Shown here: positions 435 to 54,930 of the stretch, piece by piece
How the letters are laid out: the number at the start of each line of letters is the position of its first letter
How positions within the stretch are numbered: position 1 is the stretch's first letter
Source of the DNA: Patescibacteria group bacterium
GTDB lineage: Bacteria; Patescibacteriota; Patescibacteriia; Magasanikbacterales; GWA2-37-8
Assembly (NCBI GenBank): GCA_041661385.1
Contig: JBAZUP010000001.1
Location: 640,907-704,906 of the forward strand
DNA length: 64,000 bases
Reading direction: 5' to 3'
Made by a program: the position numbers and the translations under genes
The notes under the pieces: generated by a model
The model's input: only the letters and a program-made list of their open reading frames with translations
The model's database searches: none
What the model was told of the DNA's origin: nothing

Positions 435-1087
435 ATTTTTAAATTAAAAATACTCACTTTTGCCCTTATTTTACACGATTTTCTCGTTTGCAGCAATTTA
501 AATTAGTTGCGCACCACTTATCCACCGACTGTGCACTTTTTATCAATATAATCCTTGCCAATTATCTCATTGGGTATTTAATAACGAGATAGTGTGTGAT
601 TTTAATCCACGATTCAACTTCAGCAAAACAAACAAACTGATTGTGGCAGTTTCTGCCGAAAAATCAACAAGCTACTAAGCGAACCCCTAAGTTAATCTTT
701 ACAATTAACTTAGGAGCTCATCTTTCCGACTTAACCGAATATTTATCGCTAAGGTTAATAAAGGAAAATATGAAGCAATGGGCAAATAAAACAAGGAATG
801 TTATCAGATGTTTATATTTGAGAATGTTTCGAACACGCATTAATCCGTCAATGCGGGTATTATTTGTTAATTTTTTTGGATTAATATTTTTAAAAAGACA
901 AATTTAGTTTGTCTTTTTTTATTATTATTCAAAAAAATTTAATTATTAACTCGGTTAAACAAAGAGGGTGTCACTTCCACCAAACCAAAAGGTCGAATGG
1001 TATGAGGTGATTATTAAAAAAATTTAACCGGCAACCTAGCTGATTTTTATAATAAATAGGAAAAACCAGCGGGATAATAAATATCAT

Positions 1088-6558: not shown

Positions 6559-7695
6559 ATGAAAACATCCGAACTAAAATTCCAACTCCTAAAATTATCC
6601 GCGCTTGTTGTCGCGTGGTTATTTGTATTCAATCCATTACCCGCAAAAGCTGGCAACATCGCTGATATATATTTTGAACAGTCACCGCTGTTTGGGTCAA
6701 CAGATATTGTACCAGGTGATACCGTTGCGAAGTGGGTAAGGGTAATAAATAAAGTGAATGATAATCTAATCGTGACGACTGCGGCTTCTAGTGTAATTAA
6801 TGATGATCATTTAGGTGATCGGCTAAATTTAATAATTAAAAAAAATGGCGTTCTAATTTATTCCGGAACAATGTCAGAATTTTTCACAGCCTCTGAAACG
6901 ATACTCGGCACCATAGCTCCTTACCAAACCGGTCAATATTATTTTACCGTGTCATTCGATAATGCTGCGGGAAATAATTTTCAAGAAAAAACCTTATCTT
7001 TTGATATTGCCGTTTCCGCCCAAGTTTCAGAATCAATTGGCGGCGAAACCCAGGCACCTCAAGGTGGTAGCTCCGGCAACAGTGAATATATTATCAGCGA
7101 TTTAAATTTAACAAATATCAGCGCAAACCTTGTATCAAATCTTTCCACTTCTTCTATCACTATTACTTGGCTTACCAATAAGGCGGCTACATCACGGGTT
7201 GTATATGATACTGTGCCGCACCCCGATCTATCTATGGCTCTGCCACCAAATTACGGATATGCTTCTTCCACCATGCTTGATACAAATAAAGTTACGAGCC
7301 ATTCCGTCACAATTTCCGGATTACTCCTCGGGCAAGCATATTATCTAAGGCCGATTTCTGCAGCATCGCCGGAAAAATTTGGAGCCGAGTTGGCAGTCAT
7401 ACCAAGTGGCGCGGAGCAAATAAATAATACCCAAACTTATAAAAATAACAGCGCAACATATGTTCCAGCTGAATCGCCGGAGAATGAAATCAAAAATATA
7501 AAAATTGCACAAACTGTCCCGATTGCTTCGCCAAGGAGTGAAATCAAAGGCATAAAAATTTCCCGTACTTCCGGCGCCAATAACTTAACCGAATCTGGAA
7601 TCGGCCCTCTGGAGATTGTCTTTTCGGGAGTAAGCATCCTGATTTTGTTTTCTCTCAGAATATTATTAAAGAAAAATAGCGTAGTTACAGATTGA
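6559..7695 (+). CDS. secreted protein with camelysin-like N-domain, FN3-like domain and C-terminal TM anchor
   Basis: 378 aa; signal peptide; IVPGDTVAKWVRVINKVNDNL resembles TasA core; ITITWLTNKAATSRVVYDT FN3-like; hydrophobic C-terminus. Confidence 0.55.
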   Translation: MKTSELKFQLLKLSALVVAWLFVFNPLPAKAGNIADIYFEQSPLFGSTDIVPGDTVAKWVRVINKVNDNLIVTTAASSVINDDHLGDRLNLIIKKNGVLIYSGTMSEFFTASETILGTIAPYQTGQYYFTVSFDNAAGNNFQEKTLSFDIAVSAQVSESIGGETQAPQGGSSGNSEYIISDLNLTNISANLVSNLSTSSITITWLTNKAATSRVVYDTVPHPDLSMALPPNYGYASSTMLDTNKVTSHSVTISGLLLGQAYYLRPISAASPEKFGAELAVIPSGAEQINNTQTYKNNSATYVPAESPENEIKNIKIAQTVPIASPRSEIKGIKISRTSGANNLTESGIGPLEIVFSGVSILILFSLRILLKKNSVVTD

Positions 7696-7766: not shown

Positions 7767-8975
7767 TTACTTCTTCTCCCCCGTTGTGGTGAGCCTCGCG
7801 TCTTCGGCCACCTTTACGCGGTCGAATACATAAACGCACTTCTCACCTTCGGCAGCGCCGCAGGGGTTGTCTTTCCTCTCCTTCACTTTCACCCAGTGAC
7901 CAGTGTCCTTGAGGACGCTGATCTTGGGCACATCGAGCCGGATCTTTTCTTCCACCTTCGGTTCAGGCTTCACTTCAACCTTCACCTCGGGCTTCTTGCT
8001 TGCAAGCTCGATGTCTGCAACCTTCAACGCGGAATTCACGTCGTACACGCAGTCAACAGCGACCACGCCAACGACACCGAGTGAAGAGTTGTTTGAAAGG
8101 CCGAGCCCTACACCAAGCGCCTTGTCGGCGGCATAGTTTGCAGCTCCGCTCGAGCTACCCCCTTGGCCATCTTGGCCGACCGTGAGGTAGACCTGATGAC
8201 CGTAGACGGTGACAATCTTGCGATTGAACGGAGCCGGGATGAGAACCTCATCCACCAGGAACGGCTTTTCATTGTCGAAACCATCGAGCATGCCGTGCAT
8301 CGTCTGCACGCGAACACCCGTCTGCCACAGACCAAAGATCTGTGGAACATGAGCATTGCGCTCGAATGGGCGAACCATGACCCTACGGCCGCAGTCGCCC
8401 ATCTTCTCGAGACGAACACCGCCCATGGCGATGGTGGTCGGAAGCGACGGCGGCTGCACCGGGAAGAAAGTGAGCTCCCGGCTGTTGTCGACATTGGTCG
8501 TGGTCTGATTGACCACCGCACCTCCGCCATTGCCGGAGTTTTCCACCTTCGCCTTGCCGCCCTCAGCGTTTCCGCCAGTTGCATTTCCGCCGGCAGCATT
8601 GCCACCCGCGCCACCAGCACCTCCTTGCGAGGTGGAAGAAGACGAGGCGTCGCCTGTCCTCACATCTCCGGTATGAACCGAAGTGTTCTGGTCACCAGTG
8701 GTGGAGGTCGAGGTAGAACCCGACTGTGCGTTGCCGCCAGTTGCCGTCGAAGCAGAGTTCGACGCCGAGTTGGCATTCGCGGTGACCTGTTGATTCTGGT
8801 CTTGAGACTGATGTTGGTTCTGATCCTGCTTCTGGTTCTGAGTCTGGGTCTGATTCAGGTTGCACGGCTTTCCCTTGGGGTGGCCGTGCTTTTCATCATC
8901 GCAGGCGAAAGCCGACGAAACGAAAAGGAATTGAACGAAAACCGCGAACACTGCCGCAAGCATCTTTTTTGACAT
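7767..8975 (-). CDS. GC-rich secreted protein of unknown function, Gln/Asn/Gly/Ser-rich low-complexity N-half (compositional island A)
   Basis: ATG at 8975 preceded by GGAGG (8983-8987 complement); MSKKMLAAVFAVFVQFLFVSSAFA signal peptide; strong GC3 codon bias unlike flanks; ORF-track start 9047 is an upstream in-frame alternative. Confidence 0.55.
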   Translation of the reverse strand: MSKKMLAAVFAVFVQFLFVSSAFACDDEKHGHPKGKPCNLNQTQTQNQKQDQNQHQSQDQNQQVTANANSASNSASTATGGNAQSGSTSTSTTGDQNTSVHTGDVRTGDASSSSTSQGGAGGAGGNAAGGNATGGNAEGGKAKVENSGNGGGAVVNQTTTNVDNSRELTFFPVQPPSLPTTIAMGGVRLEKMGDCGRRVMVRPFERNAHVPQIFGLWQTGVRVQTMHGMLDGFDNEKPFLVDEVLIPAPFNRKIVTVYGHQVYLTVGQDGQGGSSSGAANYAADKALGVGLGLSNNSSLGVVGVVAVDCVYDVNSALKVADIELASKKPEVKVEVKPEPKVEEKIRLDVPKISVLKDTGHWVKVKERKDNPCGAAEGEKCVYVFDRVKVAEDARLTTTGEKK

Positions 8976-9255
8976 CGAACTGCCTCCGTGGGTGAAAATC
9001 GATTGACCATCAACTTTCTTCATTGCGCAATTGTTGCTTTTGCACAACTGAAGATTCTATCATTTTTTTACCATATTGTCAATGATATATCGATATATTT
9101 AACTGAGCTCCAATCGTATTATCAACCGTAGAATTACCCCAAATCACTTAAAAACCGCCCTTACTTGGTTTATGCACCCTGTTCTACCCTTGATTTTTCA
9201 AAATATTTATGCTATTCTAGTCAAACAAAAATTGATGTTTTTACGCTAATAAAGC

Positions 9256-9358: not shown

Positions 9359-9484
9359 GGAGATGAGATTCGAATGGGAAAGGGAGAAAACGGGAGTTTT
9401 TTCTTGATGAGGAAAGCCCACGAAAACCCGAACGGTTTTCGTGAGAGCGAAGCGAGTTCGAATCTCCGATCGCCGCTTTGTTAG
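9359..9484 (+). repeat. tRNA-3'-associated structured element, copy 1
   Basis: begins ggagatgagattcgaa (inverted copy of the tRNA-Ser T-arm and 3' strand). It contains hairpin agaaaacgggagtttttct, core TGATGAGGAAAG, and hairpin GAAAACCCGAACGGTTTTC (9422-9440). It ends gagttcgaatctccgatcgccgctttgttag, a direct copy of the tRNA 3' end and trailer. Confidence 0.6.
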
Positions 9485-9626: not shown

Positions 9627-9763
9627 GTGAATGATGAGATTCGAACTAAAGATGGAAAGAAACGAAGTTTCTTTCGTGCTGAGGAAAGTTCACGAAAACC
9701 CGAACGGTTTTCGTGAAGCGAATGAAATGAACGTGTTCGAATAGCGAAGTGCTCACCCTCTCC
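9627..9763 (+). repeat. tRNA-3'-associated structured element, copy 2
   Basis: gatgagattcgaac (inverted T-arm) ... gaaagaaacgaagtttctttc hairpin ... TGCTGAGGAAAG ... GAAAACCCGAACGGTTTTC (9694-9712) ... gtgttcgaata...ctcaccctctcc (direct 3' acceptor copy). Confidence 0.6.
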
Positions 9764-9770
9764 ACCAAAA

Positions 9771-13266: not shown

Positions 13267-15928
13267 CTTTAACCGGCACTCGAAGTTTTACGACATTTTC
13301 CATTATTTCTTTTAATTTATTACTGATTTCTGCAACTAGTTTTTCTTTTACTTCCAAAACCAATTCATCATGCACTTGCATAATTAACTTGGCATCTTCG
13401 TTTTTAAAATTTTCTTTCAAATATTTATAAACCTCAATCATCGCCATCTTCATAAGGTCGGCTGCAGTGCCCTGCACCGGATGATTTACTGCCATGCGTT
13501 CGGCAGCACTGCGCGCCTGATAATTTGAAGAATTAAGCTCGGGTAAATATCGACGGCGTCCAAATAACGTTTCGCAGTAGCCTTCTTTTTTGGTAAAAAT
13601 TAAAGTCGAATCAATATACTTTTTTACGCCGCTGAATTTTTCAAAATACTTTTGAATAAATTGTTTTGCTTCCCAATGAGTAATATCGGCGCGCCAACTG
13701 AGACCATAAACTCCCATGCCATAAAGCACGCCGAAATTTATTTCTTTAGCAGCGTAACGCATTTCTTTGGTGACTTTATCAAGTGGCACTTCGTGAATCG
13801 CGGCGGCGGTCGCTTGGTGAATATCTTCGCCCTTTTCAAAAATTTCAATCATTTTTTTATCTTCGGCAAGTGAAGCTACTACCCTTAGTTCAATTTGTGA
13901 ATAGTCGGCGCTAATTAATTTATAGCCTTTTTCAGCGACAAATGCGTTGCGGACTTCCTGCCCAAGCTTGGTGCGAACCGGAATATTTTGTAGGTTTGGA
14001 TCAGAACTTGAAAGGCGGCCGGTCGCAGTGATTGCCTGATTAAACGAAGAATGAATGCGTTTTGTTGTAGAGTTAATAAGTACGGGCAAGGTATCAATAT
14101 AAGTATTTTGAAGTTTGGTTAGTTCACGATAAATACTTATTTCATCAACAATCGGATGCAGACCTTTTAATTTATCTAGTTCTTCGGCAGAAGTAGATAA
14201 ACCCGTTTTGCCTTTTTTTATGCCCTCAGTTGAAATATCCAATTTTTCAAACAGCACCTCACGAAGCTGAAGCGGCGAAGAAATATTAAACTCCATTCCG
14301 GCGTGCGAATATATTTTATCAGTAATAATTTTTATTTCTTTTGCGACTCGCGTCGATAAGTCTTTTAAAATTTTAGTATCAACCGCAACACCATTTGCTT
14401 CCATATCGGCGAGAACCGGCACAAGCGGCATTTCAAGTTTTTCAAGCAATCCTAAATTATCTATTTTTTCCAAATCATTTTTTAATTGACCCGAAATTTG
14501 TGAAACTAAATATAACTCATATGTCGCCTGGCGCTTATCAATTCCAAACAAACTTTCTTGTCCGCTGCCTGCCGCCAGTTCTTTACCAAGAATTTTAAAG
14601 ACCAGTCCGGCAATATCATGAGCCCGACTTCCCGGATTAAGAATATATGACGCGATCATTACATCAAATAGCTTATTTTTTATAAAAATGTTTTCGTGAA
14701 TTTCCAAATATTTTACCAGCGGTTTTAAGTCGTGTCCTATTAATTCAAGATCTTTTTCCAAAAAAATTGTCTTGAACTTATCGAACATTTCGGCAGGAAT
14801 AAAATATGATTCACCTCCAACAGCAAGCGCGACGCCATTTAATTTGTTTTTAAATATATCTGTTCCTTCAATTACCAACCGCGCCGCATATTTTTTGGTC
14901 TTTTTTATTTTTTCCACCAGTTCGTCAACCGCTGCTTTTTTGCTTATTTCTGTATATTTATAATCAATTTTTACTGCCGTTTTTTTACCGTTCTTTTTTT
15001 CTCCTCCTCCGGCCTCCGGCGCATCCTTAAACTCAGGAATACGTTTTAACAAAGAAATAAATTCATATTTTTGAAACATTTCAACAAGCTTCTCCCGCTC
15101 AAATGGCTTGACGCGACAATCTTCCAAATTAAAATTTAAATTAGGCACTTTGGTATCTAGCGTAGCGAGCTCATAACTAAGCCTGGCAATTTTTTCATTT
15201 TCCTGCAGTTTTTTTATAAGTGAATCTGTGAAGCCGGCTTTTTTTAAATTTTTAATATTTTTATATATTTGATCTAGTGAACCAATTTTTTTTATTAACT
15301 CTGTTGCGCCTTTTTCTCCGATACCGGGCACGCCAGGAATATTATCCGACGCATCACCGCGAATTGATTTATAATCAATCACTCGATCCGGTCCGAAACC
15401 GTACCGCTCATTTACTCCTTTCGGATCATAAACAACCACATCATTTATTCCTTTTCTTAAAGTATAAACCTTTACTTTTTCTGAAACTAGTTGCAGCGTG
15501 TCCATATCGCCGGTAACAATAAAAACTTCCAACGGTTCTTGCTCGGTCATTTTTACAATTGTTCCAATCACATCGTCTGCCTCATAGCCGGACTTAGAAA
15601 AAATTTGAAAATTAAACGCGCCTAGCACTTCCCTAGTAAGAGGTATTTGATCGTACAGTGCTTGTTCGGCTTTCACCCGAGTCGCTTTATATTTATCAAA
15701 TTTAACATGCCTAAATGTCGGACCGGCTTCATCAAAAGTAACCGCAACATATTCGGGTTTAATTTCATTCAAAACTTTCAAAAGCATCGAAACAAAACCA
15801 TACACTGCATTTACCACGACGCCGCTTCTTGTTGTAAGCGGTGGAATCGCGTGATATGCCCGGTGCACAATAGCATTCCCGTCAATTATCATTAACTTTT
15901 TCATAATCGAATTGAACGAGGAAATCAA
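13226..15928 (-). CDS. polA: DNA polymerase I
   Basis: 900 aa; 5'-3' exonuclease domain N-terminus, C-terminal polymerase motifs (RRAAKEINFGVLYG, VHDELVLEV). Confidence 0.9.
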   Translation of the reverse strand: MISSFNSIMKKLMIIDGNAIVHRAYHAIPPLTTRSGVVVNAVYGFVSMLLKVLNEIKPEYVAVTFDEAGPTFRHVKFDKYKATRVKAEQALYDQIPLTREVLGAFNFQIFSKSGYEADDVIGTIVKMTEQEPLEVFIVTGDMDTLQLVSEKVKVYTLRKGINDVVVYDPKGVNERYGFGPDRVIDYKSIRGDASDNIPGVPGIGEKGATELIKKIGSLDQIYKNIKNLKKAGFTDSLIKKLQENEKIARLSYELATLDTKVPNLNFNLEDCRVKPFEREKLVEMFQKYEFISLLKRIPEFKDAPEAGGGEKKNGKKTAVKIDYKYTEISKKAAVDELVEKIKKTKKYAARLVIEGTDIFKNKLNGVALAVGGESYFIPAEMFDKFKTIFLEKDLELIGHDLKPLVKYLEIHENIFIKNKLFDVMIASYILNPGSRAHDIAGLVFKILGKELAAGSGQESLFGIDKRQATYELYLVSQISGQLKNDLEKIDNLGLLEKLEMPLVPVLADMEANGVAVDTKILKDLSTRVAKEIKIITDKIYSHAGMEFNISSPLQLREVLFEKLDISTEGIKKGKTGLSTSAEELDKLKGLHPIVDEISIYRELTKLQNTYIDTLPVLINSTTKRIHSSFNQAITATGRLSSSDPNLQNIPVRTKLGQEVRNAFVAEKGYKLISADYSQIELRVVASLAEDKKMIEIFEKGEDIHQATAAAIHEVPLDKVTKEMRYAAKEINFGVLYGMGVYGLSWRADITHWEAKQFIQKYFEKFSGVKKYIDSTLIFTKKEGYCETLFGRRRYLPELNSSNYQARSAAERMAVNHPVQGTAADLMKMAMIEVYKYLKENFKNEDAKLIMQVHDELVLEVKEKLVAEISNKLKEIMENVVKLRVPVKVEVGAGQSWGETK

Positions 15929-16110
15929 ATTTATTTGAATTTCCGAGTGATTGAGTTTATATCGAAGATATAAGATATTTTCCCTTATTATACACTAAAT
16001 TAACACAAAATCAACCTATATAAATGATAAGGGCGGCCCAGTTTATGGGCTCGCCCTGTGTGAGGTTTTGCCTGCCCTCAGCAGGCCGCACGGATGCGGA
16101 AATTGGGTAT

Positions 16111-16464
16111 CTACCCGACCACCCCGACAGCTTCGGGGTAAAGAGTCTCGGGGTCGGGCCAGAGGGCCTCATTCACGTCGGCAAGCAAATCACCGAACGA
16201 AATTTCCCTCTCGGGATAGATGCGGTCCGGCTCGAGCCGCACGTAGCCAAGCCGATTGGCCAAAATGACCACATAACGGTGCTTGCCGCTCTTGTTGTAG
16301 ACCGCGAAGGTGAGTCCATCCTTGGTCCCGAAGGTCCCGCCAACCCCGAACTTCCCGGGGATCTTGGCCTTCACTGCCGCAGCGAGTCCGTCCGTTCCGA
16401 AGAACGAAAGCCAGCAAAAGTTTTCGCCAGCCTCAGCAACAGCCACTCTGATGTTAGTCTTCAC
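16111..16464 (-). CDS. GC-rich hypothetical protein (island B)
   Basis: 117 aa; extreme GC3 bias versus flanks; GC-rich hairpins 16031-16056 and 16070-16086 just downstream. Confidence 0.45.
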   Translation of the reverse strand: MKTNIRVAVAEAGENFCWLSFFGTDGLAAAVKAKIPGKFGVGGTFGTKDGLTFAVYNKSGKHRYVVILANRLGYVRLEPDRIYPEREISFGDLLADVNEALWPDPETLYPEAVGVVG

Positions 16465-16864
16465 GTTTTGACTCCTTGTTACTGGGTTTACCCGCCTAGA
16501 AAAGAACGATTTTTAATATTCCAGACCTTTTTATGTGTCTGGAGTGTGGTTTGTTTTGCAAAACACACCTCAAAACATAAAAATGCATAAAAAATCACCC
16601 TTTTTTGAAGGGTGATTATAGTTTTATCGATAAGCGCTACTTCTTAGGCATTTTCAAAAACATAATCACCCCTCTTATAAAAGAAGGCCCAGAAGCTAAA
16701 ATACTGTTGTGATTGATTATGTTTCATAGATTGAATTAAATTTACCCTAAACTTTAGGGGGCGTCAAGTGTGGATAAAATGCCGATAAACTTCAAACTAA
16801 TTTGGAGCTTAATAGGTTGGCAGAGATTAAGCCCTCTGCCATGGCTCCGTCGAAACGGAATGAG

Positions 16865-17185
16865 CTACTTCATAGGGCTCTTGCTGAAGAACCCCTCGCA
16901 GGTTAGGCTGAACAAATAGGCAGCCTCGCTGACCTTGAGATTCGTTCCAGCCTTGAACGAAAGAAGGTTGCCGCCGGAAAACCGGCCCCTCATTCGCGCC
17001 TCGCGCAATTTCTCGATCGTCCCCTCGTCATCGGGCTTCAGTGCACCCGACGCGCACAGCTGCCCCAGCTTGTTGAGCGCTGTCGCTTCATCAGGATCGA
17101 GCACCTGATGAAACACCCCGTAGAAAGATTCGTTCCTGAGCATCGAATCGATCATGAACTTCTGAATCACCGCCGCGTCAATCAT
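16865..17185 (-). CDS. GC-rich hypothetical protein (island B)
   Basis: 106 aa; same compositional class; hairpin ggcagag-attaagccc-tctgcc 16819-16840 downstream. Confidence 0.45.
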   Translation of the reverse strand: MIDAAVIQKFMIDSMLRNESFYGVFHQVLDPDEATALNKLGQLCASGALKPDDEGTIEKLREARMRGRFSGGNLLSFKAGTNLKVSEAAYLFSLTCEGFFSKSPMK

Positions 17186-17224
17186 CGAACTTCTCCTTGT
17201 GAGAGTAAATACAGTTGCTGTGAA

Positions 17225-17590
17225 CTACTTCTTGCTCGCTCGGGAGCTGATCCGCTCGAGGCCGGGCCACACGTTCTTCATGAAGAGTTCCGGCTTGAAG
17301 AACTTGACCGGACGCAGCACGATGGTACGCGCCGCCTCCCTCTCGACCTCCGAGGAGTTTCTGGGGCTATACCAATAACCCCGCTGGATCGCCTTGTGAA
17401 CCATGTCGAGGTCCTCGTCGCTCACGATGATCCGTGACCGATTGGACATGTCGACGAATTCGTCGAGAGACTTCACGACGTTCTCGTCAATCTTCGGCTT
17501 GAAGATGATGAGAAGCCGCTTGGTCACCCGAAGGGAATTCTGCAGCTCAGTGAGAGCCATGTCTTCTGTCTGGAACTGTCCATTTCCCAT
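17225..17590 (-). CDS. GC-rich hypothetical protein (island B)
   Basis: 121 aa; 40-bp gap to next island gene; no recognisable domain. Confidence 0.45.
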   Translation of the reverse strand: MGNGQFQTEDMALTELQNSLRVTKRLLIIFKPKIDENVVKSLDEFVDMSNRSRIIVSDEDLDMVHKAIQRGYWYSPRNSSEVEREAARTIVLRPVKFFKPELFMKNVWPGLERISSRASKK

Positions 17591-17675
17591 TTATTTTACC
17601 CCTTTTTGATGTCTGCCGAGATATTCAGCGGACTAAGAATTCTATCAAAAAAATGGGTTTTTGTCAATGGAAGCC

Positions 17676-17797
17676 GAGGGGAATCGCACTGCTCGGCCTT
17701 CGGCCTGCGCTTTGAGAAACCGTTCGGGTTTCTCAATACTCATCCTCAGCAAGTAAGAGGGCTCGCTGCCCTCTTACCATCTCCCCGTGCGATTCCC
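17676..17797 (-). repeat. tRNA-3'-associated structured element, copy 3 (downstream of tRNA-Cys)
   Basis: read on minus strand: gggaatcgcac (inverted tRNA-Cys T-arm) ... gtaagagggcagcgagccctcttac hairpin ... TGCTGAGGATGAG ... GAGAAACCCGAACGGTTTCTC (17714-17734) ... gagcagtgcgattcccctc (direct copy of the tRNA-Cys 3' end). Confidence 0.6.
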
Positions 17798-17807
17798 AGA
17801 CACAAAT

Positions 17808-17838
17808 AAAAAGATACCTTTTATAAAGGTATCTTTTT
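17808..17838. terminator. perfect palindromic hairpin, bidirectional terminator
   Basis: aaaaagataccttt-tat-aaaggtatcttttt, 14-bp perfect arms flanked by A/T runs; sits between tRNA-Cys 3' end and element copy 3. Confidence 0.6.
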
Positions 17839-17843
17839 ATTTG

Positions 17844-17915
17844 AGGCCCGAGTGGGAATCGCACCCACGCATAGGGGTTTTGCAGACCCCTGCCTTACTG
17901 CTTGGCTATCGGGCC
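17844..17915 (-). tRNA. tRNA-Cys (anticodon GCA)
   Basis: GGCCCGA...TCGGGCC acceptor with discriminator U, anticodon loop CTGCAAA, T-arm GTGGGTGCGATTCCCAC. Confidence 0.9.
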
Positions 17916-32448: not shown

Positions 32449-32598
32449 AGTATTAAATTATTTTTTAGAGATTATAATACTATATCACAGTTTGAATACT
32501 AGCAGTAGTGTTATACCTGTGGATAAACCACTAAATATTATTTATTTTGGCTAAGAATAAGGTGGTAAATAAAAAAACGGCGGTTTGCCGTTTTAATA

Positions 32599-32735
32599 TT
32601 GTGGACCATGTGGAAGCGAACTCGTACTGCTTTGGCAGTACTCTTTGGAAAACCTTCGGGTTTTCCAATACCTTTCCTCGGCAAGTAGGAAAATTCTTTT
32701 CCTACCACCTTTGGTTCGCTTCCGATTGTTAATTG
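32599..32735 (-). repeat. tRNA-3'-associated structured element, copy 4 (downstream of tRNA-Ala-TGC)
   Basis: read on minus: cggaagcgaacc (inverted) ... gtaggaaaagaattttcctac hairpin ... TGCCGAGGAAAGG ... GGAAAACCCGAAGGTTTTCC (32647-32666) ... gagttcgcttccacatggtccacaa (direct copy of tRNA-Ala 3' end ggttcgattccgacatggtccacaa). Confidence 0.6.
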
Positions 32736-39998: not shown

Positions 39999-42900
39999 AT
40001 GTATAATTTAAACGTTAATGTTCTTATGGTGCTTGTCGAGAACATCGCTAAAAAATCCAAGAGACTTGGCAACTGTTTATATAGCCGAGGAGTTTTAATT
40101 TTAACATTGTCGCTATTTGCGGCAATTTTTATTTTTTCCATTAAAACTACCGCCGCAACACCGCCTCCATTCATTACTTATCAAGGACGGCTTTATGTTG
40201 GCACTGCTCCGGCGACCACTACTTTGAATATAAGTTTTACAATGTTTGATGCGCCGACTGCCGGTACGGCAATTTATACCGCATCAGGAACGGTGGGGGT
40301 TCCTGCGGCAGTAAGTACCACACCAGTAAACGGATTATTTACCGTGTATCTAGGTGACACCGGAACAAACGCTCTTGATCCAACTTTGTTTCAGAACAAC
40401 AGCAGTGTTTATTTGGAAGTAGTCGTAAATGGTGAAACATTATTGCCTCGTAAAAGAATTATTTCAACTCCGTTTGCATTTAACGCAAAATATTTAGATG
40501 GTATTGGCGCGACGAGCGCCGCTTCAACTTCTGCCTACATTCCAGTTTCAGATTCAAGCGGAAATTTTAATTTAAATAAAGTTACTTCAACTGGTTTAAA
40601 TGTAACCGGTCAGTCTTCGTTTGCCACCTCAACATTTACCTCAACGACAGTCGCAAACGGAAATATCACAAATTTAATTGCGGGTTCAATTACAACAACA
40701 AATTTTAACACAGTATCTTTTGGCAGTACCAACGCAACTTTTACAAATGTTACTTCAACTAATATTTCTGGTACAAATGCTAACTTAGTTAGTTTGACTT
40801 CGACAAACCAGTTTGCAATTGGCTTAGCCGCGACAAACTTTAATAGTGTCAACGCCACTTCGACTAATAGTTATTCTTCAAATTTTGGTGCGTTAAATTT
40901 GGTCGCTACAAATGTAACCTCAACCAATATTTTTTCTTCGGGCCTGTCATTTACAAACTTAAGCGGCACATCGGCAAATGTAACCAACGTAACAACAACA
41001 AACTTTTTTTCCTCTTCACTAGTTGTAACAAATGGAACAATTACAGATTTTAATTCGACAAACGCTTCTACTACAAATCTATATGTTTCGGGGCTTGTGA
41101 ACTTGCCCGCGAATTCAGTGACAGATGCCATGATTTTTTCGGCAACAACTTGGAACGCAAAACTCGGCCCCAGTTATCCAGCCCTCGCCACCTCATCATT
41201 CTTATATATCGGTTATCAAGCGCTTGCTTCTTCGACTTATTTAACAAACTCCTATTCTGCGCTTGCAACTTCATCGTTCCTCGGTGTTAGTTATCCAGCC
41301 CTTGCTACATCGACATTTTTAACAATTGCCAATTCTACCTCTCTTGCTTATCTTGGACAAAATTATCCGTCGCTTGCTAGCTCAACATTTTTAAATCAAA
41401 ACTATACCGCAATAGCGACTACGACTTTTGTTTCTTATGCTGGAGCAAATAGTAATGTTGATCTTGGCAGTCATGGCATTACTTTTTTAAATGCAACGGG
41501 TACCTCACTTACCTCAACAAATATTTCCGGCACTAATGGTATTTTCGCGAACCTTACTTCAACCAATTCATACATTAGCAATCTTTCAGTTGGGAATTGT
41601 GTCGGCTGTTCTGGTGGTGGGGGCGGAGGCGCGGTGAATACTTCTACTGGGAACTATTTTTCTTATTATTTAAATAGTACCTCCGTTACGGGTACGCCAT
41701 TTATGGTTTTAAGCGGGAGCACAATTGCCATATCCGGCGGTTTAGATGTTACAGGTATTTCTTCTCTTGCTACGACCACCATCACGTCATCAACTATTTC
41801 ATATTTAAACGCAACCAACGTTACTTCGACGTATGCAACTATTACAAATGCCACGTTAACAAATTTAGCTTCTCTAAATCTTTCAGCTACAAATATCGCG
41901 GCAACAAATATTCAATCTACGAATGCAACATCCACCAATCTTGGTATATTGGGGTTGTTTAGTTATGCAAATGCTAGCGGTGTGTCGCTTACCTCGACAA
42001 ATTTATACACTCCAGGACTCTCTTTTACAAACGCAACCGGTACTAATCTATATTTATCAGGACCTGGCAACTCTTTAAATATAGCGAACAATGCAAACAT
42101 TAACGGAACTCTTAGCGTCGGCACAGTTTCTTCTACTAATTATATTGGCAATGCTCAAAATTTATCATTAGCACGTATTGGACAATCAACCTACTCAACA
42201 ATTCAACATTTACAAGATATATTTCATTCTTCCGGTTGGGTAGCCGGCGGCGTAATTGCTGATATTGGAGCCGGTAATGTTAGTGTAGCGGGTGGAACCG
42301 GTTTAATAAGAGGGCAAAATCAAGCAACAACAACTCTGTATTATTTCGATTGGACAGCTTCTTCTAGTATTACAATCGCTGTAAATACAATTCGATATTT
42401 GGGTGTTGAATATAATGGCGGTTCACCGCAAGTGGCACTAAGAACAACTGGAAATTGGAATTATAAAACAGATTTTCCACTTGGTAGAGTTGTAAATGAA
42501 AATGGCACGCTATATATTTCAAATGATGTTCAGGGGGTCGGAGATCATGCCGCCAATATGATTTTAAGAGAGTATGAAACTATGCCGCTCGCGCGTGACG
42601 AAAGAAATGGCGGTCTAATGTTGGGTGAAACCGGAACAAGAAATATTACAATGACAGCGGGTGCTCTTTGGGATCGCTTAAATCGATATCCAATTTCAGC
42701 AATTAATACTGGTGTTAGTGGAAATTTTGATATTTATGTCGGAGCAACGCTAAGCTCTTCCACGCAAACACAATGGCCAAATGCTTATTTTGATAATGCA
42801 GGCGTGCGCACAGTAATGACGAATAATCGTTATGCAAACTTATGGTTTTTCGTTGAGATGGACGGACGGTTGGTAATGGTATATGGAACAAATCAATATT

Positions 42901-45900
42901 CATCAGCAGCCGCTGCGCAGGCTGAAACCATGCCAGTCACTCTTCCGGACCGATTAATTTCCGACGGAAAATTAATTGGTAGAATAGTGTTTTTAAAAAA
43001 TGCCGCTACCGCAACGACAGTTGACTCTGCATTTGATATGGCGTTATCTGTTTCGCAGGCAACGAACCACGCCAATTTGTCGAATCTAGACTATGCTTCA
43101 TCGAATCATACTGGTTTTCAGGCCGCGATTACTACCGGTAACACTGCTCAATATTTCCGCGGTGATTTATCTTTAGCAACTTTAAATCAGGCAGCTATCG
43201 CTGGACTTACAATAACCGACAGTCCGACATTTTTTGGAGTTAGTACTACAAACGCAACAACAACAAACTTTCTGACCACCAATGCAACCTCCACCAATCT
43301 TAATATATTAGGATTGTTTAGTTATGCAAATGCGAATGGTACTTCACTTACCTCGACCAATTTATACACTCCAGGACTTTCTTTTGTGAATGCAAACGGC
43401 ACCTCACTTACCTCGACCAATATATTTACGAGTTTATTTAATGCAACAAACGGAAACTTTACAAATGTTACTACCACTAATCTCTCAGTCGCAACTAGGC
43501 TTTCTTTTGTAAACGCAACTGGTACGAATATTACTTCAACTAATATTTATAATAGTAACCGTTTCGTTTCAATGGGCGATGTAATGATCGGAACTACAAC
43601 ACCGGGCCGGTCACTCGTAGTTTCTAAAGATCAGGCGAACCCTACCGGAATTAATATTTCAAATAAAACTAATGGCGCGGCGTCTAATGCCGGATTATTT
43701 CTTTCAAATGACACTGGTAATGATGACGGTCAATTATTTAAATACGCATCTGGCAATATTGGTTATAAAACTTTAGCTGGTAGCGATCTAGGTTTTTATA
43801 ATGCCGTCGGAGGTAATATTTCGATCTTGAATGATTATGCTTCGGGAAATATAAATTTTGCCGCCGGAGCTGTATCATCGCCACAGCTTATTATTTTACC
43901 AACGGGATTGGTTGGTATTGGTACTGCGGCACCTTCCTCAACACTTCATGTTGTTGGTAATGGTATATTTAGCGGAATATTAACTTCAACAAGTTTTGTT
44001 GCAACCAGGGCGACTACTACCAATCTTGCTGTTACTACCGGGCTTTCATTACCAAACACCAGTGTTACCGATGCCATGATTTCTTCGGCAGCTACCTGGA
44101 ACGCCAAACTCGACTCAAGCTATTCGGCGCTTGCAACTTCTACGTTTCTTAATCAAAGCTATACCGCACTCGCTACCTCAACTTTTCTTTCACTCACCGG
44201 TGGCACGCTGACGGGTGGTTTAAACTTTACTAATGCGACCGGTACCAATCTCAATCTCACCGGCCTATTTAATTTCGTTAATGCAACTGGCACTTCTATC
44301 ACTTCCACCAACGCCACCTTCTCAAGTTCGATTAAGCTTTCATATATAGCAAGCTGTAATGCAAGCAATCAGGCGCTCCAAACTGCTGCTGATGGTTCGG
44401 TATCTTGTGGCACGCTGACTGTTGGCGGTGGGGGTGGCGGAGGAGTAAACACTTCCACGGCCGGATATTTTACTTATTATTCAGGTGCAACTTCGGTCAC
44501 GGGTACTCCATATATGAGTAACGTTGGAAATACTATTGCTTTCACTACTAATACTTCTTTCACCACTTCATCATTTTCTGGTTCGATTGGTGTCGGCACT
44601 ACTAATCCGACATCCAAACTCCATGTATATGATGGAACTTTGTCAGTAGATAATCCGGTTCATCCGAGATTAATTACAACGTATTCCGAAGGGACAATTA
44701 GTGACGCTACTCATCTTATTGTGTCTGGAAAATATGCCTATATAACCGATTATAATAATAATTCACTAACTATAATGGATATTTCTAATCCTGCTTCAAT
44801 GCAGCTAGTTGGCAGAACAGCGAGCGCGTCAAAATTATTAAACGCGAATTATGTTTATGTGGCAGGAAAATATGCTTATGTCGTAGCCTATGGTGTAAAT
44901 GGTCTTGCTGTCGTTGATGTCTCAGATCCGGGCGCACCTACAACCTCAGGTTTTGTAAGCGACCCTACATTACTAAGTCAGCCAGATAAAGTTTATGTTT
45001 CAGGAAGATATGCTTATGTGTCTTCTAACGGCAATAATGGATTAACGATAGTTGATATTTCAAATCCAAAAAAACCGACTATTGCTGGATCGATATCAGA
45101 TGCAACAAATTTGGGGGGAATATCTGGTGTTTATGTGGTTGGTCATTATGCCTATGTGACTTTTGGTTGGGCACCTGGAGGCATGTCCATTATTGATGTT
45201 GCAAATCCGGCTAGTCCGGTAGTGGTCGGTCATACTGAACATCCATACTATTTCAAAGGGCCGTTTTCTATTTATGTTTCGGGCAAGTATGCGTATGTTA
45301 CAACTAAAGACAGTAACGGTCTTGCAGTAGTTAATATTTCTAGTTCGACCGCTCCAACTACGACCGGATTTACTTCATCGACTTATTTAAAGGCTGCGGT
45401 AGATGTCCAGGTTTCTGGAAATTATGCTTATGTTGGAAGTTATGGGGTAGTGGGTGGGGGTATTGCTGTCGTTGATGTCTCCAATCCGGCTGCACCGACC
45501 ACGACCGGAGGGTATACGAGTGCTAGTGTTGGAAATTTGAATTCAATATCTGTTTCGGGTAAGTATGCTTATGTTGTAGCTAGGTGGAGTAATTGGATTT
45601 CATCTTTTGATCTAGAGGGTGCAAATATTTCTACCGCCAATATTGGCAATGTTGCGGCAAGTGATTTGACGGTTTGGGAAAACGCAGAAATCGGAAATAA
45701 TTTGTATGTCGGAAGTGGGTTGAATGTGGGTCTGAACGGAATTAGTACGATGGGACAATTAAACGTGTTTTCTACTACCACCCTACTCGGACAAGTAAAA
45801 ATTGGCACCACGACCGCGCTTTCTACTGCGATGCTTCATGTTGATGCTGGTACCTCCACCGCCTATGGTCTTGCGATAAATGGTTTTGCTCGCGCAACGG

Positions 45901-46883
45901 GTGGATTTTTCGCAAGCACTTCCCTTGATCTTGCGGAACGCTACCCGGTTGATCCGAACTGCGAAGCAAATGGCAATTGCCCGACTGCGGGGGATGTTAT
46001 TTGTCAGGTGGAAAACACTTCTTCATTATATATAGAAAAATGTTCAGTAACATCGAGCCCAATGGCGCTCGGTATAGTTTCAACCGATCCTGGGTTCGTT
46101 CTCGAAGGAGGATTTGCCGAAAGCAACTCGCGCAAAATTGCTCTCGCTGGTCGTGTGCCGGTTAGGGTTTCTACTGCTAATGGGAATATTAAACCCGGAG
46201 ACTTGCTCGCGCCATCGGGTATTTCCGGTATCGCAATAAAAGCTACTGAACCGGGAGTTACTGTCGGTAGAGCACTTGAAAACTATAATCAAAGCACCGT
46301 AAACGGATTTATAATTGCCTATGTTCAGTTGGGTTGGAATCATGTTGAAAACAAAACTATAAATAACTCAGCTTCATCTACTAGCACAATTTCTTCTTCA
46401 CTTTTCGAAAGTATTATTGATGCCTTCAGACAATTTGGAATAATTATTGAGCAGGGAATATTGCGAGTAACTAATTTCTTTGCAAATAAAGTTACCACCG
46501 ACGAATTATGTGTTGGCAACACTTGTGTTAATGAAACGCAATTGATTGAGTTGTTAAACAAGAACAACATGACACCAACTGCACCGGCACCGGCAGTTAC
46601 CCCAGTAGTTGACACAAGTACGCCAGCAGAAACCACCAGTTCAACCGCGCCGGTTATTGATACAACAACCGTAATTAATTCATCGACCACTACCCAACCG
46701 ACAGATACAGCGACAGATACAGGAACAACGCAGCCTGTTGACCCAGTGGTAACACCGCCAGCAGAAACCGTTTCTCCACCATCAACGGAAACAACTCCAG
46801 TCGTTCCGATTGAAACAGCGCCGACTCCAGTCATCGATGTTGCTCCAGCTCCATCAAGTGAACCCGCACCGGCCGCCCTGTAA
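39999..46883 (+). CDS. giant cell-surface fibre/adhesin-like protein (2294 aa): N-terminal TM, tail-fibre-like Ser/Thr/Asn repeats, eight LVIVD beta-propeller repeats, Pro/Thr-rich C-terminus
   Basis: N-terminal hydrophobic anchor, then a conserved beta-domain (ITYQGRLY...LPRKRIISTPFAFNAKYLDG). Long TSTN-type pseudo-repeats with an internal ~110-nt near-identical duplication (~41930 vs ~43290). Repeated GKYAYV..GL.VVDVS.P units (LVIVD repeats) 44650-45600. Start could be Met at 40026. Confidence 0.75.
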   Translation: MYNLNVNVLMVLVENIAKKSKRLGNCLYSRGVLILTLSLFAAIFIFSIKTTAATPPPFITYQGRLYVGTAPATTTLNISFTMFDAPTAGTAIYTASGTVGVPAAVSTTPVNGLFTVYLGDTGTNALDPTLFQNNSSVYLEVVVNGETLLPRKRIISTPFAFNAKYLDGIGATSAASTSAYIPVSDSSGNFNLNKVTSTGLNVTGQSSFATSTFTSTTVANGNITNLIAGSITTTNFNTVSFGSTNATFTNVTSTNISGTNANLVSLTSTNQFAIGLAATNFNSVNATSTNSYSSNFGALNLVATNVTSTNIFSSGLSFTNLSGTSANVTNVTTTNFFSSSLVVTNGTITDFNSTNASTTNLYVSGLVNLPANSVTDAMIFSATTWNAKLGPSYPALATSSFLYIGYQALASSTYLTNSYSALATSSFLGVSYPALATSTFLTIANSTSLAYLGQNYPSLASSTFLNQNYTAIATTTFVSYAGANSNVDLGSHGITFLNATGTSLTSTNISGTNGIFANLTSTNSYISNLSVGNCVGCSGGGGGGAVNTSTGNYFSYYLNSTSVTGTPFMVLSGSTIAISGGLDVTGISSLATTTITSSTISYLNATNVTSTYATITNATLTNLASLNLSATNIAATNIQSTNATSTNLGILGLFSYANASGVSLTSTNLYTPGLSFTNATGTNLYLSGPGNSLNIANNANINGTLSVGTVSSTNYIGNAQNLSLARIGQSTYSTIQHLQDIFHSSGWVAGGVIADIGAGNVSVAGGTGLIRGQNQATTTLYYFDWTASSSITIAVNTIRYLGVEYNGGSPQVALRTTGNWNYKTDFPLGRVVNENGTLYISNDVQGVGDHAANMILREYETMPLARDERNGGLMLGETGTRNITMTAGALWDRLNRYPISAINTGVSGNFDIYVGATLSSSTQTQWPNAYFDNAGVRTVMTNNRYANLWFFVEMDGRLVMVYGTNQYSSAAAAQAETMPVTLPDRLISDGKLIGRIVFLKNAATATTVDSAFDMALSVSQATNHANLSNLDYASSNHTGFQAAITTGNTAQYFRGDLSLATLNQAAIAGLTITDSPTFFGVSTTNATTTNFLTTNATSTNLNILGLFSYANANGTSLTSTNLYTPGLSFVNANGTSLTSTNIFTSLFNATNGNFTNVTTTNLSVATRLSFVNATGTNITSTNIYNSNRFVSMGDVMIGTTTPGRSLVVSKDQANPTGINISNKTNGAASNAGLFLSNDTGNDDGQLFKYASGNIGYKTLAGSDLGFYNAVGGNISILNDYASGNINFAAGAVSSPQLIILPTGLVGIGTAAPSSTLHVVGNGIFSGILTSTSFVATRATTTNLAVTTGLSLPNTSVTDAMISSAATWNAKLDSSYSALATSTFLNQSYTALATSTFLSLTGGTLTGGLNFTNATGTNLNLTGLFNFVNATGTSITSTNATFSSSIKLSYIASCNASNQALQTAADGSVSCGTLTVGGGGGGGVNTSTAGYFTYYSGATSVTGTPYMSNVGNTIAFTTNTSFTTSSFSGSIGVGTTNPTSKLHVYDGTLSVDNPVHPRLITTYSEGTISDATHLIVSGKYAYITDYNNNSLTIMDISNPASMQLVGRTASASKLLNANYVYVAGKYAYVVAYGVNGLAVVDVSDPGAPTTSGFVSDPTLLSQPDKVYVSGRYAYVSSNGNNGLTIVDISNPKKPTIAGSISDATNLGGISGVYVVGHYAYVTFGWAPGGMSIIDVANPASPVVVGHTEHPYYFKGPFSIYVSGKYAYVTTKDSNGLAVVNISSSTAPTTTGFTSSTYLKAAVDVQVSGNYAYVGSYGVVGGGIAVVDVSNPAAPTTTGGYTSASVGNLNSISVSGKYAYVVARWSNWISSFDLEGANISTANIGNVAASDLTVWENAEIGNNLYVGSGLNVGLNGISTMGQLNVFSTTTLLGQVKIGTTTALSTAMLHVDAGTSTAYGLAINGFARATGGFFASTSLDLAERYPVDPNCEANGNCPTAGDVICQVENTSSLYIEKCSVTSSPMALGIVSTDPGFVLEGGFAESNSRKIALAGRVPVRVSTANGNIKPGDLLAPSGISGIAIKATEPGVTVGRALENYNQSTVNGFIIAYVQLGWNHVENKTINNSASSTSTISSSLFESIIDAFRQFGIIIEQGILRVTNFFANKVTTDELCVGNTCVNETQLIELLNKNNMTPTAPAPAVTPVVDTSTPAETTSSTAPVIDTTTVINSSTTTQPTDTATDTGTTQPVDPVVTPPAETVSPPSTETTPVVPIETAPTPVIDVAPAPSSEPAPAAL

Positions 46884-54127: not shown

Positions 54128-54354
54128 CAAATGAACAGAGATTTTAATCTCTGTTTTATTTTGTTTTTAATATTGACAAAAGCGTAATTTTGTGATATTA
54201 TGTTATGTTGCTTTTTACTCTATTTTTAGCAAAAAAAGCGATAAATGCTCATTAAAATGCAGTTTCAGCTGTGCAAATAGCCCATGTTTCGTGGTTTGTT
54301 TGCACGGGTGAACTGCAGTCAACTAGTTCGCGCTATAGGGGCGCAGGAGGAAAC

Positions 54355-54930
54355 ATGACCGTGTTTCGGATTCTTGGCAGGTGGCTGTTCGGCGTCATCA
54401 GTACTCTCGCATTCTTCGGCATCGTGTACGGTGTCGTTTGGTACTTCTTCGGAGTTACCGTAGTCACGTCGAAGTGCGAAAACCAGGACGTGATTTCGAA
54501 GGTGTACATCAACAACGAATACCGGGGCGAAACGCCCCTCAGTGTCCGTCTGGGTATGGGAAATCACATCGTGAAGATCGAGCCTCCCGAAGGTTATCGG
54601 GGTCAGCATCTTTACATGGAGTTCTGGAGTATGGGTCGCGGTATAAATTTCGCCGAGACTCTTACCAAGCTTGACTACCAGGTCACGCTTCACAGTCCTG
54701 CCAGTCAGCCTGGCAACTTCATGGTGATGGACGGAGCCGGAAAACCCATTGGAGCCTGTGGCGGCGTTGTATGTTCAATCCCTCTTCCGGGTCCAGGAAC
54801 CTACCGCGCCAAGCTGGAGCAAATTTGCTGGTCCAGTAACGGGACCCGATGGTGCACCGGCGGCGACGAAAAAGCGATGGACTTTGCTGTCCATCCTGAT
54901 CAGCCGACGGCTGAGATGACGTGGAACTAA
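54355..54930 (+). CDS. GC-rich PEGA-domain membrane protein (island C)
   Basis: AGGAGG 54345-54350 then ATG 54355; N-terminal TM; VYINNEYRGETPLSVRLGMGNHIVKIEPPEGY matches PEGA domain; strong GC3 bias; ORF-track start 54271 is upstream alternative. Confidence 0.6.
   Translation: MTVFRILGRWLFGVISTLAFFGIVYGVVWYFFGVTVVTSKCENQDVISKVYINNEYRGETPLSVRLGMGNHIVKIEPPEGYRGQHLYMEFWSMGRGINFAETLTKLDYQVTLHSPASQPGNFMVMDGAGKPIGACGGVVCSIPLPGPGTYRAKLEQICWSSNGTRWCTGGDEKAMDFAVHPDQPTAEMTWN

Follow-up and report, generated by a model that had tools for sequence, protein, structure and literature searches.

A putative GC-rich accessory locus with a predicted phenylalanine-type attenuator between tRNA-Cys and polA in Candidatus Magasanikbacteria

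Little is known of how Patescibacteria, which have tiny genomes and rely on other microbes, regulate and gain genes. We analyzed a 64,000-nucleotide stretch of one such genome (assembly GCA_041661385.1, contig JBAZUP010000001.1, positions 640,907 to 704,906), hereafter the window, numbered from its first letter. Between its tRNA-Cys gene and polA lies island B, a short GC-rich region with three small minus-strand genes, B1, B2 and B3, which an initial annotation made from the sequence alone had taken for a remnant or cassette of an integrative element. On balance, we read island B differently, as what is probably a lineage-restricted accessory locus of one Candidatus (Ca.) Magasanikbacteria sub-clade, furnished with host-type promoters and terminators and a phenylalanine (Phe)-type attenuator. 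The coding sequences would come from an unsampled, GC-richer gene pool, within a regulatory scaffold that is host-type and conserved. Island B is a concrete, testable case of gene regulation and gene gain in Patescibacteria, in which orphan genes of foreign composition appear to have been connected to host regulatory signals and exchanged between lineages.

An inserted locus with relatives in the same place

Composition sets the three genes apart from their surroundings. The window, which its genes mark as part of a Patescibacteria chromosome and whose closest polA relatives are Ca. Magasanikbacteria, has a GC content of 41.5%, and 35 host genes in it have a mean GC at third codon positions (GC3) of 0.369 (standard deviation 0.049, maximum 0.50). 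B1, B2 and B3 reach 55–59% GC, with 0.52–0.61 at first (GC1), 0.34–0.42 at second (GC2) and 0.73–0.80 at third positions; their GC3 lies 8.8, 7.8 and 7.3 standard deviations above the host mean. They favor the codons CGG, CTC, GCG, AAG and GAG, a choice unlike that of any of the 35 host genes. GC3 near 0.8 combined with normal GC2 would result from a long coding history under GC-biased mutation. The initial annotation had described three open reading frames (ORFs) of 121, 106 and 117 amino acids with extreme GC3 bias on the minus strand between polA and tRNA-Cys, and its coordinates, sizes and bias all hold.

B1, B2 and B3 are genuine coding genes. Each has a Shine-Dalgarno-like AAGGAG or AGGGG 6–9 nt 5' of it, and these motifs, the codon-position pattern and the protein-level relatives of B1 and B3 together mark the genes as real. 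The opposite view, that the island is a misassembled GC-rich contaminant or consists of chance ORFs in GC-rich non-coding DNA (for example a structured RNA), draws on the few stop codons of GC-rich DNA, which leave several overlapping ORFs on both strands, and on the hairpins found in the GC-rich stretches. We consider it effectively refuted. Contigs from two independent read sets are 100% identical over 15873–17716 and 16277–17745, and the first of them (L001) spans the polA-side junction, so the island is not an assembly chimera. At the DNA level, the organism is present in SRR18595301 and SRR6484324. Moreover, the homologous locus has the same neighbors in other lineages, and codon-position periodicity, dN/dS well below 1, a confident fold prediction for B1 and the lack of Rfam matches all count against an artifact.

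Compared with the gene order of most relatives, tRNA-Cys and polA are separated in the window by an insertion of 1.9 kb. We retrieved 26 Magasanikbacteria loci via polA, with an M23 peptidase gene and tRNA-Cys upstream of polA. In at least 13 of the 26, tRNA-Cys and polA are no more than 124 bp apart (64–124 bp in eleven), the empty site that the initial annotation had proposed seeking by synteny. An empty site runs tRNA, terminator hairpin, polA promoter, polA, and island B sits between that hairpin (17808–17838) and the promoter (15987–16014). More distant relatives with an empty site lack the island genes.

Genes of the B1 family, the B3 family or both occur at the equivalent position in five other lineages: L083/84/85, L086, L087, L088 and L089, the last an additional locus found by a DNA-pattern scan with the leader sequence. 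L083/84/85 share 70% identity with the window in polA, 74% in ddl and 63% in holA. In every lineage the locus genes have a higher GC3 than host genes, 0.46–0.81 (0.46–0.78 for B1 and B3 homologues) versus 0.26–0.40. The initial annotation would have given up foreign origin for genes conserved in position with host-like composition; the position is indeed conserved, and the composition is not host-like.

From tRNA-Cys to polA, the window's version of the locus reads as follows (promoters, terminators and hairpins are predicted):

17843–17915, minus strand: tRNA-Cys (GCA), the upstream anchor of the locus, directly upstream of polA in most relatives
17808–17838, minus strand: palindromic terminator hairpin of the tRNA-Cys transcript, in relatives both with and without the island
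17668–17802, minus strand: tRNA-trailer element, a multi-hairpin of ~135 nt whose 3' arm copies the T-loop and 3' end of tRNA-Cys
17639–17667, minus strand: B1 promoter, TTGACA-17-TAGAAT with an extended -10 TG, 11/12 consensus, kept in relatives
17611–17633, minus strand: conserved hairpin in the 5' untranslated region (UTR) before the B1 ribosome-binding site, GTCCGCTGAA...CGGCAGAC
17225–17590, minus strand: B1, 121 amino acids, GC3 0.80, divergent "class II" member of a small orphan alpha/beta family confined to the locus
16865–17185, minus strand: B2, 106 amino acids, GC3 0.75, probable distant B1-family paralogue found in the window lineage only, predicted to be co-transcribed with B1
16808–16840, minus strand: terminator of the B1-B2 unit, GGCAGAGGGC..ATCTCTGCC with a conserved CTATTAAG tail, duplicated in L083
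16739–16767, minus strand: leader/B3 promoter, TTGACG-17-TAAATT, with a -35 box invariant in four lineages
16644–16727, minus strand: leader ORF, 27 codons, MKHNQSQQYFSFWAFFYKRGDYVFENA, aromatic-rich, frame conserved in four lineages including one 3-nt indel
16593–16725, minus strand: predicted four-segment attenuator, with segment 1 at 16715–16725 (the start of the leader ORF), segment 2 at 16657–16671, segment 3 at 16610–16619 and the terminator at 16593–16617 with a U-run
16521–16542, minus strand: conserved B3 5'-UTR hairpin, CCAGAC..GTCTGG (arms CCAAAC..GTTTGG in L083)
16111–16464, minus strand: B3, 117 amino acids, GTG start, GC3 0.73, orphan alpha+beta protein with homologues only at the equivalent position in relatives
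16030–16057, minus strand: B3 terminator hairpin, AGGGCGAGCCC..GGGCCGCCCT (counterpart in L083 GGGCGGCC..GGCCGCCC with a T-run)
15987–16014, minus strand: polA promoter, TTGATT-16-TATAAT, with a TGTATAATAAGGGAAAATAT block identical in L083; distal edge of the inserted locus

Much of this layout forms a core shared between lineages. The first half of the core comprises tRNA-Cys, a terminator hairpin, a TTGACA-17-TAnnnT promoter, a 5'-UTR hairpin, a B1-family gene and the terminator GGCAGAGAGC..ATCTCTGCC followed by CTTATTAAG. The second half comprises a TTGACG-17-TAtAnT promoter, a short ORF, a terminator, a hairpin, a B3-slot gene, a terminator and the polA promoter. Two transcription units are predicted, B1/B2 and leader/B3, both with host-consensus promoters and their own terminators; the B1 terminator with its tail is unique in sequence to this locus. 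From a near-consensus sigma-70 promoter, B1 and B2 would be made constitutively. Across the whole window, only 11 sites fit the pattern TTGAC[AG]-N16-18-TAnnnT.

This layout revises the initial annotation, which had treated the three genes as a single remnant block; they fall into two units, each with a promoter and a terminator. What had been described as an AT-richer, host-like spacer with terminator-like hairpins (16470–16860, 34–39% GC) is a conserved regulatory module that holds a terminator, a promoter, the leader ORF and the predicted attenuator. The GC-rich hairpins reported at the distal end do exist: one is the B3 terminator, and a second lies at ~16071–16087.

A predicted ribosome-mediated attenuator in front of B3

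The leader of B3 would encode a short peptide rich in aromatic residues. Phe, Tyr and Trp account for 8–9 of its 26–27 codons (4–7 of them Phe), and one lineage reads FFFFWAFFY. The peptide is MKHNQSQQYFSFWAFFYKRGDYVFENA in the window, MQHNQSQQYFSFWSFFYKKGDCVFVNA in L086, MKHNLVKVYFYWTFFYKKGDCVFVSA in L083, which carries the 3-nt indel, and MKHNSQQFFFFWAFFYKKGDCVFVNA in L089. Three candidate helices accompany the ORF:

16715–16725 with 16657–16667: helix 1:2 (anti-antiterminator), GAAACAYAAUC with GAUURUGUUUU, 95% paired across four lineages
16662–16671 with 16610–16619: helix 2:3 (antiterminator), GGGUGAUURU with AYAAUCACCC, 100% paired across four lineages
16593–16617: helix 3:4 (terminator with U-run), AAUCACCC..GGGUGAUU, a 10-bp stem, 97% paired across four lineages

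All three are mutually exclusive, and helices 1:2 and 2:3 share segment 2. Each helix has one compensatory pair, and the R of segment 2 (GAUURUG) covaries with both of the bases it can pair with. In a control that slid the 3' partners by 1–3 columns, pairing fell to 32–58%.

Such an arrangement would allow translation of the leader to govern transcription of B3. A ribosome stalled on the aromatic codons would leave segment 1 open and helix 2:3 paired, with read-through into B3. If the leader were not translated at all, or if the ribosome ran unhindered to the stop codon, helix 3:4 would form and transcription would end. B3 would then be switched on when charged Phe or aromatic tRNA is scarce or translation is slowed.

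Leader-peptide attenuators are familiar from amino-acid operons, as in trpL, pheL/pheA, pheM/pheST and hisL. Like these, the B3 leader has a short aromatic-rich ORF, an intrinsic terminator with a U-run before the gene, the 1:2, 2:3 and 3:4 logic with mutually exclusive helices 1:2 and 2:3 overlapping the ORF (modestly supported, with four sequences), and a stop codon placed so that a terminating ribosome would mask segment 2. It differs in that segment 1 is the start of the ORF and not the regulatory codons, and in that B3 is a 117-amino-acid orphan, neither a biosynthetic nor an aminoacyl-tRNA synthetase gene. Patescibacteria are largely without amino-acid biosynthesis. The leader does not belong to the Rfam Phe_leader family (RF01859), whose threshold is 55 bits; its score is 18.5 for the correct strand and 21.9 for the opposite one. 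Rfam at gathering and permissive thresholds gave nothing for the leader, the trailer or the hairpins. The locus thus has what appears to be a classical ribosome-mediated attenuator in Patescibacteria, one that would control an orphan gene rather than a biosynthetic operon. If it works in this way, B3 is an episymbiont protein induced by starvation or translation stress, and an entry point to host sensing.

We also considered the leader peptide as a type I toxin and rejected the idea: its hydrophobic run spans only 9–10 residues, and its ORF interlocks with the helices of both terminator and antiterminator.

Small orphan proteins confined to the locus

B1 proteins fall into three classes. Class I (L083, L086, L087 and L088) is 66–80% identical within itself, class II is the window protein, 30–35% identical to class I, and class III is the L089 protein, 20–26% identical by BLAST and recovered by hhalign at 94% probability. 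Class I genes are under purifying selection, with dN/dS of 0.11–0.20 and identities of ~0.8, 0.87 and 0.55 at codon positions 1, 2 and 3, a pattern that the label "remnant" in the initial annotation does not fit. An AlphaFold model of B1 built from six sequences is alpha/beta, with a predicted local distance difference test score (pLDDT) of 87 and a predicted template-modeling score (pTM) of 0.80. Foldseek found no significant match for it in PDB or BFVD (best E 0.19 and 0.06, template-modeling score at most 0.40), and the B1 family can be described as a protein predicted to fold confidently with no structural relative detected.

B2 is, by sequence, a distant B1 paralogue. It matches the B1 homologues of L083, L086 and L088 at E values from 2e-7 (L083) to 1e-4; a direct pairwise comparison of B1 and B2 was not significant, and the connection runs via the L083 homologue. 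A profile of B1, B2 and that homologue retrieves four further B1-family proteins. B1 and B3 showed no relationship on comparison.

B3 has a single true homologue among 1.84 billion representatives, P0004 (35% identity, E 1e-14). A second candidate, the 819-amino-acid P0003, proved spurious: it is an FG-GAP/VCBS-like repeat protein, and its repeats drive a match that covers 27 residues.

Family databases bear out the initial annotation's statement that the proteins have no recognizable domains. For B1, B2, B3 and the homologues in relatives, nothing usable came from Pfam, PHROGs, NCBIfam or PADLOC: no match at E≤1 in PADLOC or Pfam, and in PHROGs only weak matches to families without known function. 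Neither the three proteins nor the leader peptide has a paralogue elsewhere in the window. JGI metagenomes scanned with the B3 alignment gave no match. Viral contigs (IMG/VR) gave none either, whether scanned with the B1 alignment, the B3 alignment, the leader pattern or the core of the trailer, nor did phage genomes searched by tblastn. In the literature we found no description of the locus, its proteins or its regulation.

Turnover and origin of the genes

The coding parts of the locus appear to change while the scaffold persists. B1 and B3 classes vary together across lineages (I with I, II with II, III with another B3-slot gene); that gene, in L089, has no detectable relation to B3 except a C-terminal LWPE motif. 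B2 is present only in the window lineage. L083 alone has an unannotated gene, X, between tRNA-Cys and the B1 homologue (528–833, plus strand, 101 amino acids, GC 0.59, GC3 0.81). Second copies of the B1 promoter and terminator bracket it (repeats 443–475 and 975–1005, 871–890 and 1455–1474), and X is absent from the sister contig L087. By its sequence, X resembles a cassette that arrived through duplication or recombination at regulatory junctions.

Rates and directions of substitution bear on the origin of these genes. Class I B1 genes have dN of 0.10–0.24, and polA of the window versus L083 has dN of 0.21 with dS saturated; given this ordinary protein rate, classes II and III look like replacements and not like steady drift. 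Among class I third-position singletons, polarized by majority rule over four taxa, GC>AT changes outnumber AT>GC changes 28 to 13, and 25 to 2 in three of the four lineages. By our own arithmetic, class I GC3 of 0.57–0.78 at dS ~1 fits simple decay from ~0.85. The excess and the fit together suggest that the GC-rich composition is ancestral and decaying, not maintained. The lineage-specific genes look freshest, which points to repeated input from a GC-richer pool. We thus envisage coding "cassettes" that were added or exchanged more than once inside the conserved scaffold, with older copies decaying toward host AT-richness. An earlier argument, that conserved non-coding blocks beside divergent coding sequence prove recent recombination, we withdrew: unconstrained non-coding positions are near saturation (0.44–0.57 identity), so the conserved blocks reflect selection.

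The same data can be read as vertical inheritance. B1, B2 and B3 would be old genes of the clade whose high GC3 arose or is kept within the lineage, through selection on mRNA or translation under strong expression or through local GC-biased repair or conversion. In its favor, six lineages keep the position and the regulatory scaffold, no donor homologue was found, the GC-rich genes of islands A, B and D lie behind the window's strongest promoters, and L087 has more AT>GC than GC>AT singletons. We nevertheless find this view rather improbable. The net flux from GC to AT places GC3 off equilibrium, homologue GC3 spans 0.46–0.81, the codon choice is unlike all 35 host genes, and the genes are absent from more distant, empty-site relatives. 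In addition, class I proteins evolve at a polA-like rate, yet classes II and III are only 20–35% identical, as expected of replacements.

Several points weigh against the accessory-locus reading that we prefer. The case for foreign origin is one of composition and distribution. The search for a donor came up empty: neither 5.8 billion clusters nor 1.84 billion representatives contain relatives of B1, B2 or B3 other than those at the locus. Exchange of cassettes needs donors that share the scaffold, and none is known. L087 singletons run the opposite way (GC>AT 3 versus AT>GC 11), and the polarization of all singletons depends on the majority among four taxa. Sequence profiles gave nothing below E 0.2 among PDB chains, the B1 model has no fold match, and the B3 model, from two sequences, is poor (pLDDT 55). 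For the attenuator there are only four full leader sequences, with covariation from one or two events, and shuffle controls are weak (12–18 of 500 for the terminator and antiterminator sets, 115 of 500 for helix 1:2). B3, an orphan without family match, gives no sign of belonging to an operon concerned with the amino acid sensed. To our knowledge, attenuation has never been shown in Patescibacteria, and our literature search found no report of a ribosome-mediated attenuator there.

What the genes do is a matter for conjecture, and we entertain two related ideas, both tentatively. The first, our best guess, makes the locus a module for conflict or host interaction that turns over fast and whose second component would be freed by translational or amino-acid stress. 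It is suggested by the way B1 and B3 classes change in pairs, by the proteins being orphans and by turnover at a hot-spot site. The second, no less doubtful, is more specific: B1 and B3 would be a toxin-antidote or defense-type pair in which constitutive B1 neutralizes or senses and B3 is released when phage infection or starvation disturbs translation. Here the joint change of B1 and B3 classes, small orphans with turnover next to a tRNA, and a B3 gated by a predicted ribosome-stalling sensor would all make sense. The database results do not help it, since PADLOC and Pfam gave no match and PHROGs gave only weak ones to families without known function; B1 and B3 lie in separate transcription units; and class I B1 is under ordinary purifying selection. 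Type II toxin-antitoxin modules resemble B1 and B3 in being two small adjacent genes that change together at a variable locus, but B1 and B3 differ in their separate transcription, the lack of homology to any toxin or antitoxin family and the lack of an evident autoregulatory operator.

A bolder extension, which we regard as a long shot, makes the scaffold a recombinase-free "capture and expression" platform. It would install GC-rich genes from outside, for example from the host bacterium or its mobile elements, with one constitutive slot and one Phe-sensing slot that responds when the host-derived amino-acid supply fails. Islands A and D would be further slots.

The tRNA-trailer element and the case for an integrative element

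The initial annotation saw the order tRNA-Cys, terminator, trailer element, island as insertion 3' of a tRNA with the trailer as boundary. Island B would then be a decayed remnant or cassette of an integrase-mediated element at the tRNA-Cys 3' end, with the trailer as its attachment (att) junction. The insertion itself stands; the boundary does not. The trailer does hold a significant copy of the tRNA-Cys 3' region (16/17 nt, score 27, matched by 0 of 300 shuffles). It is present in the window and L088, absent from the gene-carrying L086, L087, L083 and L089, and present in L019 without the genes. It is therefore an independent tRNA-linked insertion and neither part nor boundary of the island. 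At the other end, the best local alignment of tRNA-Cys to the distal, polA-side 190 bp scores 16, a value matched by 59 of 300 shuffles, and this gives no tRNA copy there.

Other evidence bears on the integrase model in both directions. Unrelated inserts of 0.4–2.4 kb, some of them with GC3-rich small ORFs, occupy the tRNA-Cys/polA site in other relatives, and L028 has a partial duplicate of the tRNA-Cys 3' half (ACAAAACCTCTATGCGTGGGTGCAATTCCCACTGCGACCTC, 7937–8000) right after the tRNA and before polA, the type of scar that integrase-mediated events leave at tRNA-Cys. Together, these inserts and the duplicate mark the site as a hot spot, and they make an old integrase-mediated entry plausible for the site in general. 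For island B itself, the position 3' of a tRNA, the empty sites in relatives, the foreign composition and the tRNA copy in the trailer also suit the model. Against it, that copy lies between the tRNA and the genes and not beyond the genes, and the trailer comes and goes independently of them. No recombinase domain occurs in the three island proteins or in 12 other window proteins tested, in agreement with the initial annotation, which had noted that the window has no integrase. Finally, the locus holds a single stable place in at least six lineages, with host-consensus promoters, a conserved candidate attenuator and purifying selection. We judge it unlikely that island B is such a remnant.

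Among the inserts at this site, small ORFs unrelated to B1, B2 or B3 lie at 6975–7427 in L027 (150 amino acids, GC3 0.84), 6986–7201 in L005 (71 amino acids, GC3 0.81), 4779–5009 in L007 and 6926–7525 in L004.

The trailer belongs to a family of elements of 120–137 nt just 3' of tRNAs (Cys, Ser-TGA, Ser-CGA and Ala-TGC), on the tRNA's strand. Members lie in the window at 17668–17802 (minus), 9359–9476 (plus), 9630–9766 (plus) and 32597–32732 (minus), in L019 at 7588–7660 (minus) and in L088 at 1–70. In the closing stem, the 3' arm is a diverged copy of the T-loop and 3' T-stem of the element's own tRNA followed by a copy of the tRNA 3' acceptor strand, and the 5' arm is its complement. The interior holds two hairpins, one variable in sequence and one conserved (GAAAACC-CGAA-GGUUUUC), as well as a conserved UUGCUGAGGAAAG stretch. 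Minimum free energy z-scores range from -2.8 to -7.6, and there is no Rfam match. In a distant Magasanikbacterium, a covariance model of the trailer core picks up another, independent copy that follows tRNA-Cys (54 bits, E 1e-15). Possible identities are a small mobile element that targets tRNAs, a relic of an att site and an RNA co-transcribed with the tRNA, and the element is perhaps more novel than the island. A hammerhead ribozyme, suggested by a CUGAGGA motif in the trailer, was rejected for want of stem II, the GAAA arrangement and an Rfam match.

Relation to known systems

By analogy, the locus combines two known kinds of system, the tRNA-linked genomic islet and the leader-peptide attenuator, and it does not overturn current ideas about either. 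Islands next to tRNA genes include integrase-borne elements at tRNA 3' ends and the hypervariable tRNA-linked islands of marine cyanobacteria. Island B resembles these in its place 3' of a tRNA, its deviant composition, its orphan genes, and the empty sites and different inserts in relatives. Unlike them, it has no flanking att repeats and no integrase among the proteins tested, measures only ~1.8 kb, and has been inherited stably in several lineages, always at one site and together with host-type promoters and a predicted attenuator. Moreover, its turnover proceeds gene by gene within a conserved scaffold, and not by gain or loss of the whole island.

Phage "morons" and integron cassettes are self-contained promoter-gene-terminator units, or cassettes, swapped at conserved junctions. 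Island B likewise has promoter-gene-terminator units with conserved junctions and unrelated or divergent coding parts, and gene X of L083 is bracketed by duplicates. The likeness ends there: island B has no phage context and no integrase domain in the proteins tested, its junctions are predicted to be functional host regulatory signals, and it offers only two or three slots.

Other features of the window

The initial annotation placed four GC-rich islands, A to D, near tRNA genes. This applies to A (7.7–9.0 kb, 0.2 kb from tRNA-Ser), to B and to D (54.27–54.93 kb, 0.14 kb from tRNA-Ala-GGC); island C is weak, its sigma-factor gene (52819–53922) having a GC3 of only 0.42. The GC-rich genes of islands A (7767–9047), B and D (~54356–54930) all lie behind very strong promoters of the form TTGACA-N14-TGATA(G/T)(A/T)AT (TTGACA-N14-TGATAGAAT), at 9054–9082 (minus), 17639–17667 (minus) and 54173–54201 (plus). 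The island D gene encodes a PEGA-domain membrane protein.

At polA, the mechanically called ORF begins at a TTG at 15928, and relatives align only from residue 9; by this alignment the true start is probably the ATG at 15904 (MKKLMIIDG). Downstream of the identical TGTATAATAAGGGAAAATAT promoter block, the polA 5' UTR is ~85 nt longer in the window than in L083. Farther away, a 2294-amino-acid ORF (39999–46883, plus strand) has many internal direct repeats, with a 138-bp periodicity at 44.7–45.6 kb and other repeat families, and probably encodes a large repetitive surface protein.

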